From Candidatus Babeliales bacterium (GTDB lineage Bacteria; Babelota; Babeliae; Babelales; Vermiphilaceae), in the NCBI GenBank assembly GCA_963743635.1, contig CAVUQO010000003.1, positions 416,001 through 480,000 of the forward strand: a DNA stretch of 64,000 bases. Direction: 5' to 3'. The notes below the pieces were generated by a model. It ran no database searches. It was not told where the DNA came from and saw only the letters and a list, made by a program, of their open reading frames with translations. Shown here piece after piece: positions 16,789 to 59,812 of the stretch (position 1 is the first letter of the stretch; each line of letters begins with the position of its first letter). The translations under genes and the position numbers were made by a program.

Positions 16789-18139
16789 TTAATCTTTGCT
16801 CATAGTTCCTATGAGGTAAGCTACGAATGAAAGCGCGAGAGCGGCGAATTCTTTCGGTATGCCTATAGGAAATAATCTGAAAAAGAAGAATCCAAAAAAG
16901 CCGGCACAAATGCTATAAATTGCGGCGCGTTTTTTTAGATTTGAACCAAAATAGGCAAAGAGTAATGGCACACACAAGCAGCTTACTGAAAGCTCATAGC
17001 TGCTGATGAGAATATTGATAATATCGGGCGTTACCAAGTAGGAAGCACCAACCGTTACCAAACCGGTCATAAGAGTGATGCCTTTTGAAAGATGCACACC
17101 TTTTTTCAATCCGAATTCAGAGAAGTCAAAATCTTGTGCAAGATTTGAACTGATTGCGCAAAGCAATGAATCAGCAGTCGAGGTGATAGCTGCTAAAATA
17201 CCGCAAATCGCAAACGCAAGCATAGTGGTATTGGTTAGCAATTCAATGGAGGGTAAAAGCGGATCTGCGCCTAATGGCAATAAGACATCAAGCACTCTTA
17301 ACTTCATACCAAAATATAACGGGATACATGAAAAAATAATAATGCAGGCACTCGATAAGAATGCTGAAATCGCCGCAACGCGTGCAGAGCGTGCCGCAAA
17401 AAATCGTTGGGCAAGATCTTGCTCGATGAATGAGAAGAGCGCGGTCACCATAACATATGGTGCCAATGTTTCCGAAATTGATTGATTCGGTGCTAAACTG
17501 TTGTTGTAGAGAGCCGAGTGACGTAAAAAAGTTCAGAGGTTCTTGCCATAAACAATAGATGAAAATTGCGCTGAATGCGCAGAGTATATAGGTAACTTGC
17601 GCGATATCAGTAAGTACCACCGCTGCTAAACCGCCAACCATCGTGTAGACAATAATGAATGCCCAGAGCGCAAGAAACAGCAGTTCGCTTTCGATTCCGA
17701 TGCCGGCAAGGAGCGCTTTGCATCCGATTACTTGAGCGATTAAAATACCGCACATCGAAGCAATGGAAAGGAGCGATGCAATTTTTTTGAGGGTCGGGGA
17801 TCCATATTTGGTTTGAAAGAGTTGAGCCGTGGTTGCAACGTTTAATGATTGCAATTTTGCTGCAAGGCCAAGACCAAGAACCAAAAAGCCGATGCTGATG
17901 CCGAGTGTGTAGTAGATGCCATAAAATCCAATATTGTAGGCTTCTTTAGCGGTGCCGAGTAACATGCCGCCGCCCAATTGAGTTGCTACCAAGGTGAAGG
18001 TTACTTCTGGAATGCCCAGTGCGCGACCGGCTAAAAAGTAGTCGACGTTGGTTGAAACTTTTTTCGAAGCATAGAGTCCAATAACTAAATACATGATGCT
18101 CAGAGAGCCAAAGAGGGCGAGAAAGAGTGTGATATCCAT
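16789..18139 (-). CDS. Sodium:solute symporter (SSS) family protein, one frameshift near 17470
   Basis: DYFLAGR, YTMVGGLAAVVLTD, EQDLAQRFFAARS, AAITSTADSLL in two frames. Confidence 0.88.
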
Positions 18140-53464: not shown

Positions 53465-54373
53465 CTAGTAGAAATTCTTAGTCAGATACGCGCGGCCAGA
53501 ATCGCCAAAGATCATGACTGAGTAGGTGTCTGGTCCGAGGTTTGCGGTGTATTTTTGCGCAGCAGCAGCAACAGCTCCACTGCTTGGCCCTGCCAAGAGC
53601 CCGTATTTGCGGGCAAGGACTTGGAGCATGCCAAGCGCTTCATCATCAGTTACCTCTACAAACTCATTAATAGCCGATTCATCAAGCACTGGCGATTTGA
53701 AATCGATGCCCATGCCTTCAACTTTATACGGTTTTGGATTACCGCCCGTTGCGCGGAATGAATTATTAGAGTCAACTGCAACGATAGTGACGTCAGGATT
53801 TTGTTGTTTTAAATAGCGTCCCACACCGCTGATAGTTCCGCAGGTGCCGGCTGCAGCGAAAAAGTGGGTAATTTTGCCGTCAGTTTGTTTCCAAATTTCT
53901 GGTCCAAGGAGTGAATAGTGGGCAACGGCGTTAACCGGATTGAAATATTGATTTGGCATGAATGAGTTTGGTGTTTTTGCATGGATCGCTAATGCTTGGC
54001 TGTGATAACTGACTGGATCTTCGATGAATGCCGTTGGAGGACACATTACAATTTCAGCGCCATAGGCTTGGATCGTTTGTAATTTTTCTTTACTGATTTT
54101 TTCTGAAACGCACATGATAACTTTGTAACCTTTGACTGCGCCAATCATAGCAACGGCGACCGCATGATTACCGGAAGATGCGTCAACGATAGTACCACCC
54201 GGTTTGAGTATGCCTTTTTTTTCTGCATCTTCGATTAAAAATTTGGCAGAACGGTCTTTTACGCTACCACCGGGATTGAGATATTCCAGTTTTGCATAAA
54301 GCGGTGCGGAATGGAATCCGACTCGTACGAGTGGCGTGTTGCCGATGGCATCAATGGGATTGGCATATATCAT
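53465..54373 (-). CDS. PLP-dependent cysteine synthase / cystathionine beta-synthase family enzyme
   Basis: IGNTPLV, KLEYLNPGGSVKDR, SSGN, GTCGT, VEGMG, GPSSG. Confidence 0.92.
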   Translation of the reverse strand: MIYANPIDAIGNTPLVRVGFHSAPLYAKLEYLNPGGSVKDRSAKFLIEDAEKKGILKPGGTIVDASSGNHAVAVAMIGAVKGYKVIMCVSEKISKEKLQTIQAYGAEIVMCPPTAFIEDPVSYHSQALAIHAKTPNSFMPNQYFNPVNAVAHYSLLGPEIWKQTDGKITHFFAAAGTCGTISGVGRYLKQQNPDVTIVAVDSNNSFRATGGNPKPYKVEGMGIDFKSPVLDESAINEFVEVTDDEALGMLQVLARKYGLLAGPSSGAVAAAAQKYTANLGPDTYSVMIFGDSGRAYLTKNFY

Positions 54374-54478
54374 GTGTGAGAACCTTTGTTGATAATTATT
54401 GTTTTCTATCAGCAGTATACTATACAGTAATCCTAAGACGAACAAAAGAGTGTTTTGATAGAAAGAAAGGGTTTGTGC

Positions 54479-54973
54479 ATGGAACAGGTGATGGGCGGGT
54501 ATTCACTGCAAACTTTTTTGCCATTAATTACTATTTTTTCAATAGTGATTGGCATAACGGTAATTCATCAGTGGTATTATGGTTTTAATCTACACGAAGC
54601 ATTACGCATCTTTATGGCATCATTTTTTTTGGTGTTTGGATTTTTAAAGGTGATCAATATTGGGGAATTTGCAGAAGCATATTCGATGTACGATATCATT
54701 GCAAAGCGGATCTATTGGTATGGCTATGTCTACCCGTATATAGAAGTTGCGCTTGGTATTGCCTATCTTCTTAATTGGCGCCCAAAAATGGTCAACATGT
54801 TTACTTTGTGCATGATGATTGTGTGTGCAACGGGAGTGTTTATCGAATTGCGCGCAGGCAAAAAAATGGTATGCGCATGTCTTGGCGCGATCTTTAAAGT
54901 GCCGATGACCTACGTTACATTGCTTGAAGATTTACTCATGGCCGTTATGGCCGGCCTGATGCTGCTGTTGTAA
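54479..54973 (+). CDS. MauE/DoxX-like membrane protein
   Basis: FAEAYSMYDIIAK, YPYIE, CACLG, EDLLM. Confidence 0.75.
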   Translation: MEQVMGGYSLQTFLPLITIFSIVIGITVIHQWYYGFNLHEALRIFMASFFLVFGFLKVINIGEFAEAYSMYDIIAKRIYWYGYVYPYIEVALGIAYLLNWRPKMVNMFTLCMMIVCATGVFIELRAGKKMVCACLGAIFKVPMTYVTLLEDLLMAVMAGLMLLL

Positions 54974-54983
54974 TATTCGTTGG

Positions 54984-55937
54984 CTAAAACAAATATATGA
55001 GCATAAGTGAAATAAGCAATGAGTAAATTGCGCAGGTATCAATGAGCCCTTGAGCAAATATGCTGACTTTGGAAAGTAGTTCATGCTGGTCGGGATTGAG
55101 TGCAATTTGTTCGCAGGCAGCAGAAGCGGTGATGCCCGAGCTTATGCCTGGTCCGAATGTTCCGAGGCCTGTAGAGAGCGCTGCAGCGAGTAATGCAATA
55201 CTTTTCGCAAGAGCATGATCTGCGGGAAGTGGTGTGAGTAAAATGAGCATTGCAATGACAAGACTAAAAATGATCGGCGTTTCAATCATTGCTTCACTGA
55301 CTAACATAAATGAAAACAATTTATTATATGCTTCGCGATTGATACCAACGCCGCGACACGCTACTTTAGCAAATCGCGCAAGTCCAATGGCAGGTCCGAT
55401 GCTGCCAAGCCCAATGCATAATCCTGCGGCAATTAATTTTAAACTTTCTTCAAACGTCTGTATCGTAGCCGCTTGATTTATGATCATGACTGCAACGATA
55501 AATCCAAAGATGATGGGCGTTTGTAAGATTGATTGAGTAAGGAGCATGAAGCGCAATATCTTTTGGCTGAAGAAAGGCTGACGTGCAATAGCATAACATG
55601 CTTCACGTGTTGGTAATGCAGAAATGAGTCCGATTGTAAGGCTAGAAAAACAGACCGCAAGCATAACGCCGAGTTCCGCATAATAGCCATAAATAGATGC
55701 CGGTTGGCTACGCAATAAAATAATTGCGATTGCAACACCCATGATTGCGGCAGTTTCGATGAGTGCCATGCCAAGTATCGCAGCTTTTGAGATATCGTCT
55801 TGCGCGGCGGGTTGTTGGTTGATGGCATCCAGCGCAGCGCCGCTTGTCATCCCCTCGCCAATACCAACGCCAATAGAGCTGATACCAACTGTCAGAGCGA
55901 TGGTGCTATAGTGTATTAATTCACCCAGTTCTATCAT
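54984..55937 (-). CDS. atpE: ATP synthase Fo subunit c with four fused hairpins (N-ATPase-like)
   Basis: Four repeats with loops QQP, RQP, INR, LNP and outer helices LIETAAI, ILQTPII, MIETPII, LIDTCAI. Confidence 0.9.
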   Translation of the reverse strand: MIELGELIHYSTIALTVGISSIGVGIGEGMTSGAALDAINQQPAAQDDISKAAILGMALIETAAIMGVAIAIILLRSQPASIYGYYAELGVMLAVCFSSLTIGLISALPTREACYAIARQPFFSQKILRFMLLTQSILQTPIIFGFIVAVMIINQAATIQTFEESLKLIAAGLCIGLGSIGPAIGLARFAKVACRGVGINREAYNKLFSFMLVSEAMIETPIIFSLVIAMLILLTPLPADHALAKSIALLAAALSTGLGTFGPGISSGITASAACEQIALNPDQHELLSKVSIFAQGLIDTCAIYSLLISLMLIYLF

Positions 55938-56674
55938 TATGATATTCCTTTTGGCTCGTGTTGAGTGGCAATGGCAAGATACGTAATCGTTAACATGGTA
56001 AATACAAATGCTTGTAAGAAACCTTCAAATAACCCAAAAAAAAGATATATCACCATATTGACTGAGCAAAGACCAATGAGTTGATAAATCCATGAACCGC
56101 TGATTGCATTGAAATATATTGATGAAATGGTGAAGCCGCCATAAATATTACCAAAAAGTCGAAACGCAATTGAGACGATTGTGGCGAGTTTGCCGACGAC
56201 GTGGAGCGGGAACATGAGAAAGAATGGTTCACAAAATTCTTTGAGATATTCCTTAATGCCGTGCGTTTTTATTGCGTAAAATTGTGTGTAGATAAATGCG
56301 ATAATGCCGAGCGCAAGCGTAGTATTTAAATCTTTCGTTGGTTCTTCAATCCAGGGGATGAGTGAGGCGATATTGCAAAAGAAGATAAAGCAAAAAAGGC
56401 TCGTAATAAAATTAAAATGGATTGAGGCGAGATGCCCGAGCGCTTGGTGGGTAAGATCCATAAAAGAAATGATGAATGAAGCAAGCAGATGGCGCAGAAC
56501 ACTTCTTTTCTGAGATAAAATATATTTGATGGGGAGTGAAAGCACAACCAAAAGTATGATTACAATCCATGTATCGAGGATTGTGTGGGCATTAAGAGAC
56601 CAAAATGGATTCGTAAATCCATAGGCCAATAGAGGCTGCCATTGATTATCACTCAGAGCGTGCGCTTCTGTCAT
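55937..56674 (-). CDS. atpB: ATP synthase Fo subunit a
   Basis: PTKDLNTTLAL, FRLFGNI (essential Arg), EGFLQAFVFTMLTITY. Confidence 0.95.
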   Translation of the reverse strand: MTEAHALSDNQWQPLLAYGFTNPFWSLNAHTILDTWIVIILLVVLSLPIKYILSQKRSVLRHLLASFIISFMDLTHQALGHLASIHFNFITSLFCFIFFCNIASLIPWIEEPTKDLNTTLALGIIAFIYTQFYAIKTHGIKEYLKEFCEPFFLMFPLHVVGKLATIVSIAFRLFGNIYGGFTISSIYFNAISGSWIYQLIGLCSVNMVIYLFFGLFEGFLQAFVFTMLTITYLAIATQHEPKGIS

Positions 56675-56975
56675 ATGGTTTGGCCTTATCCTTAAGTATT
56701 ACCAGCCAAAAGGCTGTTAAAAATGATACCAAAACCAGTATAAGATGAATTGATGGGGATCGCAATAAGAAGAAAAAGAGTGTGAGCAAAGTTATGATGC
56801 GCATGAAAGAATACGAAAATGAGGAGTAGGGGTTGCGCTTAATGAGTGGCTGTCCGGCAGGATTTGATTCAGAAGAAAGGACTCTTTTCTTGCAATGAAA
56901 CAAGAAAAAGAGTCCATATATAATTCCAAGACCAAAACCGGCAGCCAACGAAAGCGCGACGGTATAGAGTTCCAT
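56649..56975 (-). CDS. ATP synthase accessory membrane protein (AtpI/AtpR-like)
   Basis: Small hydrophobic ORF directly upstream of atpB; AGFGLGIIYGLFF...R pattern. Confidence 0.6.
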   Translation of the reverse strand: MELYTVALSLAAGFGLGIIYGLFFLFHCKKRVLSSESNPAGQPLIKRNPYSSFSYSFMRIITLLTLFFFLLRSPSIHLILVLVSFLTAFWLVILKDKAKPYDRSARSE

Positions 56976-56984
56976 TACAGTATG

Positions 56985-58403
56985 TTAGAACTTCTTAAGG
57001 CCTTTGTGGCGCCAGAATTCAGTAACAATGCCGGTTGAACCAGTAACAACGACTAAGCCGTTACGTTCATCGACTGTTTTCTGAGCAGCTTCAAATGCTT
57101 CTTTGAAGTTTGCGCACGCCTTAGCTTTTATTTTCATGCTCTTAATTTCATTCGTTACTTTTTCAACATCCCATGATGGGGCATCAACGTGACCTGGAAT
57201 TGATGCAACGGGGCATACAAATACTTGGCCAGAAGTCTTTTTGAAGAAGTAGCGTAGAAGCTTAAGGAATTCAGCAACATTTAATTCAGGATTATTACAT
57301 CCGACAATGAGCGTGAGTCCTTTCAGCGGTCGTTGATAATGTAAGAGACGAATACCAAGCAACAGATTCTTAAATGCGTCGAGATTGTCGGCGCTATCAA
57401 TTAAGAGGCTTGGCTTTTCTTTTTCTAGTAATTGAAAGCGTCCTGCAATAGTGCATTCGCTATCTTTCCAGAATTGATCAATAGTTTTCTTAGGATTCAG
57501 TTCTGATTGACGTTTTGCTTCTAGAGTAGGGCGACCACGTTGACCTTTTTTCTTGGTTAACAAGGTACCACTTACTACGATTGCATCTTTATCAGTAAAT
57601 GAATTGACATAAATAGAGGCGATGCGTTCAGCAAGTGCTGCGCAACGTCCATGAAGTTGTTCAAAAGGATATGCAAGCGGTGAAAGCTTACGAATTGGCA
57701 TTGCCCAGATACCTTTTTTAGCTTCGACCATTTCAAGCATTGTTTGTAAGTTTAATTTGCTTTGGTCAGCAGAAACAAGGTGAGTTCCAGGTTTGACAAT
57801 AGAAACCATTTGTTGGATAAAATCTTTTATTTCTTCAGCATTCGCATCGACATTGTCTGGCGTAACGCGTGTGATAGCGGCAACTTTTGGTGAACAAATA
57901 TGGGTTGCCATGTGTAGGCCGGTGTTATCAACTTCTAGAATTGCAACATCAAAATTTTGTTCTTTAAAATAAAGGAGCGCCATCATAACCAATACATCAT
58001 GAGATGTTGGTTTGAGAGCAAGTGAATCGGCAGTGTTTAATACTTCATTACCAAGTTCGGTGAATGATTTATTGGAGATGATCTCGCCATTGCCAGTAAT
58101 AAGTTCATTGTAGGTCAGTATGTGTGGTTCTTGGAATGTACCAACGGTAAGACCTTCTTCTCTCAGCAATTTTGCTGCGAAATGTATTGTTAACGATTTG
58201 CCGTTAGTACCTGTTACCAAAATGGTATTAAGCTTATCAGCGACGTTATTGAACGCAGCATTAAGTTTTTTAATGCACGTAAGCTGCTTATCACCCTTTT
58301 TTACGTTCCAATGGCTATCCAGGAACTCAACGATTTCGTTGTAATTACGCTGCTTGCCAAGGGTAACCGGGCTTTTGTCAGACTGTTTAGTGATGTCTTT
58401 CAT
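56985..58403 (-). CDS. FolC/Mur-ligase-fold protein with degenerate motifs
   Basis: VTGTNGKS, GRFQ, VTGS retained; SPH, GGRLDATN and DxAHN positions altered. Confidence 0.7.
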   Translation of the reverse strand: MKDITKQSDKSPVTLGKQRNYNEIVEFLDSHWNVKKGDKQLTCIKKLNAAFNNVADKLNTILVTGTNGKSLTIHFAAKLLREEGLTVGTFQEPHILTYNELITGNGEIISNKSFTELGNEVLNTADSLALKPTSHDVLVMMALLYFKEQNFDVAILEVDNTGLHMATHICSPKVAAITRVTPDNVDANAEEIKDFIQQMVSIVKPGTHLVSADQSKLNLQTMLEMVEAKKGIWAMPIRKLSPLAYPFEQLHGRCAALAERIASIYVNSFTDKDAIVVSGTLLTKKKGQRGRPTLEAKRQSELNPKKTIDQFWKDSECTIAGRFQLLEKEKPSLLIDSADNLDAFKNLLLGIRLLHYQRPLKGLTLIVGCNNPELNVAEFLKLLRYFFKKTSGQVFVCPVASIPGHVDAPSWDVEKVTNEIKSMKIKAKACANFKEAFEAAQKTVDERNGLVVVTGSTGIVTEFWRHKGLKKF

Positions 58404-59335: not shown

Positions 59336-59812
59336 ATGAAGGCAAAAGGATTCACTTTAATCGAAGTGATGGTGGTGATTGCGATTATTGCATTGCTTGC
59401 CATGATCAGTGTACCAAGTATTATGCGTTATTTGGCTAAGGCAAAACGGACTGAGGCGCACGTAAACCTGCGAGCGCTCTATACGGCAGAGAAAGCATAT
59501 TGGGCAGAGCATGGCACATATTCGAGCGTATTGAGTGGCCCCAATGGTATTGGTTGGCAACCGGAAGGATATAGTGGTGGTGGCGCAAAAGAAAACTTTT
59601 GTTACACCTATGGCTTTCCCGGAGCAGAAGGAGTCAATTACTTCACGGGTAATTTAGGAACGCCAGCTTCCAATTTGAGCAAGGCTCAAGCAGGTAAGAC
59701 AGGCTTTCTTGCAATAGCAGCAGGAGATATTGATGGTGATGGTAAACCAGATATTCTCGCCATTGATCATATGGGAAAAATTGTATTGCTCGATGATGAT
59801 TTAATGGATTAG
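59336..59812 (+). CDS. Type IV pilin
   Basis: Class III signal KG|FTLIEVMVVIAII, AKRTEA, GDIDGD. Confidence 0.92.
   Translation: MKAKGFTLIEVMVVIAIIALLAMISVPSIMRYLAKAKRTEAHVNLRALYTAEKAYWAEHGTYSSVLSGPNGIGWQPEGYSGGGAKENFCYTYGFPGAEGVNYFTGNLGTPASNLSKAQAGKTGFLAIAAGDIDGDGKPDILAIDHMGKIVLLDDDLMD

Follow-up and report, generated by a model that had tools for sequence, protein, structure and literature searches.

The locus and its fused c gene

The window analysed here, a stretch of 64,000 nucleotides from a Candidatus Babeliales genome, carries a short run of F-type ATP synthase genes on its minus strand, in which the rotor subunit c is encoded as a fused protein (atpE4):

54984..55937, minus strand: atpE4, four-hairpin fused F-type c subunit, 317 aa (ORF, Pfam, AlphaFold2)
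55698..55937, minus strand: repeat 1 (about aa 1-80), with E28 and E61 (residue counts over 149 relatives)
55464..55697, minus strand: repeat 2 (about aa 81-158), with Q139, inner-helix Pro109 and an ARQP loop
55224..55463, minus strand: repeat 3 (about aa 159-238), with E219, L186 and a T-P-x-x-F motif
54987..55223, minus strand: repeat 4 (about aa 239-317), with D300, S267 and Y305
55937..56674, minus strand: atpB, subunit a, sole copy in the genome (Pfam)
56649..56975, minus strand: probable atpI, ring assembly factor (PF03899 E 0.0048, below cut-off; position inferred)
56985..58403, minus strand: folC-like gene, not part of the enzyme (TIGR01499 just under cut-off)

The atpE4 frame (54984-55937) was translated into 317 aa with no internal stops, four ATP-synt_C stretches were detected by Pfam (E 4e-38), and the AlphaFold2 model, built from a 150-sequence alignment, was all-helical with four hairpins (pLDDT 97.9). 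The carboxylate positions are occupied by E61 (LIET), Q139 (ILQT), E219 (MIET) and D300 (LIDT), and the inner-helix positions 33 residues before them by E28, S106, L186 and S267, which leaves a second Glu in repeat 1 only. An earlier sequence-only reading of this locus had described a 317-aa protein with four repeats, the E/Q/E/D series, an inner-helix Glu limited to repeat 1 and no b, delta or F1 genes beside it, and all of these were borne out: the Pfam search that it proposed returned four domains, no stop codon separates the repeats, and ORF and Pfam analysis detected no b, delta or F1 gene adjacent to atpE4. A public contig, which may come from the source sample, spans 54900-56338 including the entire atpE4 with no differences, and 149 of the 150 rows from the phylum among the matches listed align to the fused c over nearly its full length, the named homologues being from Candidatus Dependentiae, Babeliales and TM6. 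On these two grounds an assembly artefact was ruled out, and the fusion of four rotor units into one protein is genuine. By sequence as well as by fold, the closest PDB entry is c1 of A. woodii (4BEM_J); the next-best fold matches are the multiplied c subunits of V/A-type enzymes.

In the relatives, atpB lies immediately 5' of the fused gene in all 87 loci compared, some of which represent the same genome twice. The folC-like gene starts on the same strand 9 bases upstream of the probable atpI and is possibly co-transcribed with atpI-atpB-atpE4; a scan for promoters and terminators at the locus gave signal at chance level. On the other side, a MauE/DoxX-family membrane gene (54455-54973, plus strand) converges with atpE4 across a 10-base gap, and beyond it lies a PLP-dependent cysteine-synthase-like gene (53465-54445, minus strand). 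The window also holds a type IV pilin-like gene with an FG-GAP-like tail (59336-59812, plus strand) and a prepilin peptidase gene (60392-61144, minus strand).

The remaining ATP synthase genes and the type of the enzyme

All other subunits of the enzyme were located elsewhere in the genome, as the sequence-only reading had suggested looking for, and a stand-alone Fo channel was thereby ruled out. The genes are organized in four clusters, atpI-B-E4, atpE-F'-F-H-A, atpD-C and atpG alone, with one copy each of a, alpha, beta and gamma. The second of these is headed by a canonical single-hairpin atpE (G000:C2:143965) on a different contig from that of atpE4. A delta-like gene lies between atpF and atpA; its profile score is below the cut-off and it is frameshifted in this assembly, and the corresponding frames in relatives encode 165-194 aa. 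The survey of relatives, also proposed earlier, detected both the fused and the single c in every one of the 151 phylum genomes sampled, together with atpB in 150 (one match in 149 of them), and V-ATPase subunit I exceeded its cut-off in none of the 151. In the relatives too the two c genes are unlinked, the order c-b'...alpha was observed in 40 of 40 loci, and the single c retains its acid in 149 of 149 genomes. The sequence-only reading had itself named a separate single-hairpin atpE serving the enzyme as evidence against it and had limited the ring to multiples of four hairpins; this limit is not supported, because a single-hairpin atpE is present here and throughout the 151 genomes beside only one a subunit. 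Two ortholog groups of c subunits were already listed in the supplementary table of Yeoh et al. (7/7 and 6/7 genomes), with no comment on them in the main-text passages covered (PMC4776705).

Several genes are broken by frameshifts in this assembly, namely atpF, atpH, atpA, atpD and murA (L006:10574-13131; L134:3942-5382; L135:2232-4434), as well as a cation/proton antiporter gene and a further PF00006 match, and coverage by long ORFs is lower in the contig with the single atpE (C2, 0.75) than in C3 (0.84). Because murA, the antiporter and the further PF00006 match are affected as well, the frameshifts are probably assembly errors. Near the atpE-F-H-A cluster, two tandem paralogues of 651 and 652 aa (L006:15919-19984) were observed, with Cys-rich beta-propeller-like repeats and a secretion-signal-like start.

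The module had been described as N-ATPase-like, and this classification failed when the features of N-type enzymes given by Dibrova et al. 2010 (PMC2881411) were compared. AtpR (PF12966) exceeded its cut-off in none of the 151 phylum genomes, with one weak match at the atpI position and a positive control in M. acetivorans. Instead of accompanying an F- or A-type enzyme as a second ATPase, this one is the only ATPase in the genome, with one a, alpha, beta and gamma, and atpB is single in 149 of 151 genomes; instead of a long b without separate delta there is the delta-like gene between atpF and atpA; and instead of an atpDCQRBEFAG operon the genes stand in four clusters. The beta subunit scored 689 with TIGR01039 and 541, below cut-off, with TIGR03305. 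N-ATPase membership was therefore ruled out. What is shared with N-type ATPases (PMC2881411; Burkholderia c17, PMC5376962) is the pair of Glu residues in repeat 1 and the proposed pumping role, whereas the inner Glu occurs in only 32 of 149 relatives and is absent from the single c. The two-Glu motif is not specific to the N-type (PMC3692424, PMC2881411), and it has also been described for the F-type ring of Fusobacterium (PMC3692424).

Ion sites of the four repeats and their relatives

The residues at each site were counted over the 149 genomes with both c genes, with G064 and G132 excluded for a partial fused gene. Repeat 1 has its acid in 149/149 relatives and Q or E at the inner position in 125 (Gln in 93, Glu in 32). 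At the carboxylate position of repeat 2, Q was found in 108, E in 27, M in 12 and other residues in 2, and judged by its residues repeat 2 is made ion-blind in this genome by Q139. Repeat 3 carries E in 142/149, and repeat 4 carries D or E in 146 and Y in 146, Y305 being the equivalent of Tyr70 that is offered to the next subunit; the loops of repeats 3 and 4 diverge from the usual motif. Over the four repeats, the acid pattern is A-AA in 116 genomes, AAAA in 24, A--A in 5 and another in 4. The ion sites within the fused c are thus unequal as previously proposed, the residue sets differing between repeats, and at least one acid is missing in 125 of the relatives, but the proposed ceiling of three active sites does not hold for the 24 relatives with all four acids.

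Fused F-type c subunits with three to six hairpins were also found outside the phylum, with 120 listed of 2050 matches, and those with a name are labelled as Desulfobacterota (Desulfarculus, Desulfobacterales, Deltaproteobacteria). These proteins (L165-L244; P0289-P0405) mostly have one or two acids and a single c gene behind them; the single c follows directly in 69 of 80 loci, and in the other 11 the contig ends within 340 bases. They share with the Babelota protein the single c partner, the motif order E..F / xTP..F / xTP..F / ..Y, and the inner Pro and ARQP loop of repeat 2, the Pro being present in 116/149 Babelota and 50/54 non-Babelota four-hairpin proteins. They differ in the Gln of the inner and mostly also the last repeats and in the adjacent single c gene. 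When the repeat order was compared with the 54 non-Babelota four-hairpin proteins, 1-2-3-4 was the best of 24 permutations, with repeats 1, 2 and 4 matching their counterparts in register and repeat 3 having no clear counterpart. In a FastTree of 110 hairpins over 66 columns, each group was kept together on a poorly supported backbone, and the Babelota repeats were not paired with Desulfobacterota repeats. A common origin of the two fused c families is likely from these sequence comparisons, and we infer that repeats 3 and 4 may have descended from ion-blind repeats and regained their acids. In the literature covered, no paper on the Desulfobacterota family was found.

Other unusual c subunits were noted among the matches. 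P0199 (cluster P0270-P0280, 12 members) is a 968-aa protein in which each of 13 F-type c hairpins has both Glu and Tyr, and is possibly an entire ring in a single polypeptide; Trp occupies positions at which Gly would be expected, which suggests that it comes from a TGA=Gly organism and was translated with the wrong code. P0241 and P0251 are a four-hairpin c without any carboxylate and a five-hairpin c in which every hairpin has Glu.

In Na+ rings, residues 32 and 65 are provided by one subunit and Ser66 by the adjacent one, and Tyr70 bonds Glu65 (PMC3692424). A rule for neighbouring hairpins was derived from 123 non-Babelota multi-hairpin proteins, which are related sequences, so that the events are not independent. 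Wherever hairpin i has the Tyr, hairpin i+1 has the acid (24/24 pairs), and where the Tyr is missing, the acid of i+1 is missing too in 476 of 484 pairs; the last hairpin has the Tyr in 123/123. From this pairing, the donor of Ser/Thr and Tyr is placed in the preceding hairpin, and each ion site would be composed of the acid and inner-helix residue of its own hairpin and the Ser/Thr and Tyr of the preceding one. We examined the ligand set Q/E32, E65, S/T66 and Y70 (and T67), of which four were scored. All four scored ligands are present at the single-c sites in 110/149 genomes and at the repeat-1 site in 96/149 if a single c precedes it or 113/149 if repeat 4 does, and none of the 149 genomes has the full set at repeat 2, 3 or 4. 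In this genome, the single c has a Phe in place of Tyr70, and position Thr67 is mostly occupied by Ser; for these reasons Na+ coupling is not assured.

Repeats 3 and 4 break the neighbour rule, because their acids are present yet their donor hairpins carry Pro and Phe, the signature that stands ahead of blind sites in the Desulfobacterota-like family. From these residues, repeats 3 and 4 would either be H+ sites or carry no ion. It is conceivable, though we regard it as doubtful, that one rotor combines two ion selectivities, with the single hairpins and repeat 1 binding Na+ and the regained carboxylates of repeats 3 and 4 binding H+ only. If so, one turn would move fixed numbers of Na+ and H+, both gradients would be generated from host ATP by one enzyme, and lineages would adjust the number of ions through Gln/Glu exchanges in repeat 2. 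The N-type ring of Burkholderia has similar ligands and binds H+ (PMC5376962).

Composition of the ring and direction of work

Hybrid rotors provide the closest known parallel. The rotor of the A. woodii F1Fo enzyme consists of one c1 with nine single hairpins c2/3 (PDB 4BEM; PMC9171764), and the atpE1/atpE2 genes of Clostridium aceticum are a further case. As in A. woodii, the Babelota enzyme is of F-type and has a fused and a single c gene to serve it, and the fused c has a hairpin without carboxylate (Q139 here); c1 likewise has an active first hairpin, a hairpin blinded by Glu-to-Gln exchange and a Tyr only in the last hairpin (PMC9171764, PMC7911925). In contrast, c1 has two hairpins instead of four and is encoded next to the single c, whereas the Babelota genes are unlinked, the blind site is here in repeat 2 with acids in repeats 3 and 4, the host is an obligate parasite, and the mixed ring is a prediction. 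Multiplied hairpins and lost carboxylates are also shared with V/A-type c subunits (E. hirae K, the eukaryotic c and archaeal c with 2, 3 or 13 hairpins; PMC9171764), but the atpE4 repeats score better with F-type than with V-type models and their partners are F-type a, b, delta and F1. Mainly on the basis of gene inventory and homology, we consider it probable that the sole F1Fo of Babelota has an A. woodii-like hybrid rotor with one four-hairpin block and single hairpins. The enzyme would work like that of A. woodii and is not placed as a strict member of that type because of its four hairpins, its unlinked genes and the putative nature of the co-assembly.

In such a rotor, the fused c would be one asymmetric block in a mixed ring rather than the sole ring former; one copy of it would be joined by several single hairpins to complete the ring, in the manner of c1 in A. 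woodii. Na+-type sites would be provided by repeat 1 and the single c, in most lineages repeat 2 would be blind, and the acids of repeats 3 and 4 would lack the Na+ ligand set. The effect on the ion/ATP ratio would be modest: an assumed 11-hairpin ring would have 10 acids, or 3.3 per ATP, and 8 acids, or 2.7 per ATP, should repeats 3 and 4 take no part in ion transport.

Other ring compositions were weighed with the help of coevolution. Two interchangeable homo-rings, one of two or three fused subunits and one of single hairpins, could share one stator and F1 and serve different life stages as a gear change. The two c genes lie in separate clusters and could be regulated apart, and the Thr and Tyr of repeat 4 would complete the repeat-1 site equally well, as the count above indicates. 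In mean-field DCA of 318 fused c sequences (effective 236), however, held-out covalent repeat interfaces scored 3.2-6.0, whereas repeat 4 to repeat 1 scored only -0.35 to 1.4 with negative controls up to 2.8, and this absence of signal argues against fused subunits standing side by side. In addition, the related family has mostly blind repeats and an adjacent single c, and three consecutive blind sites would make a homo-ring hard to turn; we therefore judge this arrangement unlikely. Contact between the fused and the single c was addressed by paired coevolution with a template learned on separate sequences, in which repeat 4-single c scored 0.9-2.5 and single c-repeat 1 scored 0.5-1.6, with negatives up to 2.85. 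The diagonal-band score of the single c with repeats 1 and 4 was 4.4 and 2.8 versus 0.35 and 0.41, with no link of the single c to repeats 2 or 3, although the non-adjacent repeats 2-4 reached 3.5 in the fused-only set. When compared with within-cluster shuffles, an excess remained only for repeat 1-single c and repeat 4-to-single c, chiefly at the less strict threshold, and the covalent controls barely stood out; the weak signal between repeats and single c could also reflect shared function. The repeat-4 Tyr is lost in 3 genomes, and the single-c Tyr is absent in all three of them (background 17/149); Gln32 loss in the single c and repeat 1 covaries slightly (6/17, partly one family).

An N-ATPase-like ring built only from the fused c, in multiples of four hairpins and with the single c dispensable or used elsewhere, would agree with the position of the fused gene, and not the single one, beside atpB, and with PRK13468, whose score for the whole protein is above cut-off as the sum of four repeats. 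This reading is very unlikely given that the single c is kept in all 151 reduced genomes beside b', b, delta and alpha with its acid conserved, that AtpR is absent and TIGR03322 is below cut-off, and that the ring-closure signal is missing. Still less credible is a role of the fused c as an assembly scaffold or seed outside the working rotor. It is encoded with atpI and atpB and has divergent loops in repeats 3 and 4, but acids are conserved in three of its repeats (149, 142 and 146 of 149) together with the last-repeat Tyr (146/149), which fits passage past subunit a.

As for the direction of work, the hybrid-rotor enzyme would mostly hydrolyse host ATP and energise the membrane. Across the phylum sample the epsilon subunit has only about 80 aa (L134:5382-5627; L434-L463). 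Its frames encode 79-123 aa in all 60 matches obtained from 61 genomes, compared with models of 130-139 positions, and are too short to include the C-terminal domain. This domain restrains ATP hydrolysis. Four ATP/ADP-translocase matches were found in this genome, in agreement with the energy-parasite host proposed by the sequence-only reading, and COX1, bd oxidase, Rnf/Nqr and complex I were not found in it (85% complete). From the short epsilon, the translocases and the respiratory pumps not found, the enzyme probably runs as an ATP-driven pump, with pumping likelier than synthesis, a direction also suggested by Yeoh et al. (PMC4776705). The earlier reading had arrived at pumping as well, but its argument from the lost carboxylates does not stand, because V-type c with fewer sites still makes ATP (PMC9171764).

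A membrane pyrophosphatase (L245:1462-3495) is present in 58 of 61 genomes and was not found in 3 of the 4 genomes of one genus. All 30 loci read encode the Ala of K+-dependent enzymes together with a Glu in helix 6 that lies one turn above its place in the plant enzyme, which we take to be positions 12.46 and 6.53. According to Table 1 of PMC6882861, such a pattern fits Na+ and Na+/H+ pumps and also one H+ subfamily; in PMC4776705 the enzyme was called a proton pump. Matches to SSF and cation/proton antiporters are present in this genome, and a Na+ cycle appears plausible from these genes. In the window, a partial sodium:solute symporter match (17549-18040, minus strand; profile 1-166 of 406) perhaps represents a split gene. 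The pyrophosphatase also allows a reading that overlaps with the hybrid rotor and differs in direction only, in which the hybrid ring is mainly an ATP synthase driven by the pyrophosphatase gradient and salvages the energy of biosynthetic PPi. The wide occurrence of the pyrophosphatase, its motifs as in Na+-pumping enzymes and the capacity of rotors with fewer sites for ATP synthesis (PMC9171764) speak for it. Against it stand the short epsilon, the translocases that supply ATP, the respiratory pumps not found and the same motif in an H+-pumping subfamily (PMC6882861), and this variant of the hybrid reading is quite improbable in our estimate.

In the literature covered, from which subscription journals were largely absent, no description of a four-hairpin fused c was found, and the experimental evidence for hybrid F-type rotors comes from acetogens only. 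A four-hairpin c kept across a whole phylum of genome-reduced parasites, together with the undescribed family of three to six hairpins, would make position-specific editing of rotor sites far more widespread. Taken together, these proteins may serve as a natural series of variants with which to ask what number of blind or altered sites is tolerated in a rotor as it turns past subunit a, whether Na+ and H+ sites can stand in one ring, and whether lost carboxylates can be regained. Since Babelota has cultured members (Babela, PMC4776705) and E. coli has served to produce the A. woodii enzyme (PMC9171764), such questions on the rotor are testable.
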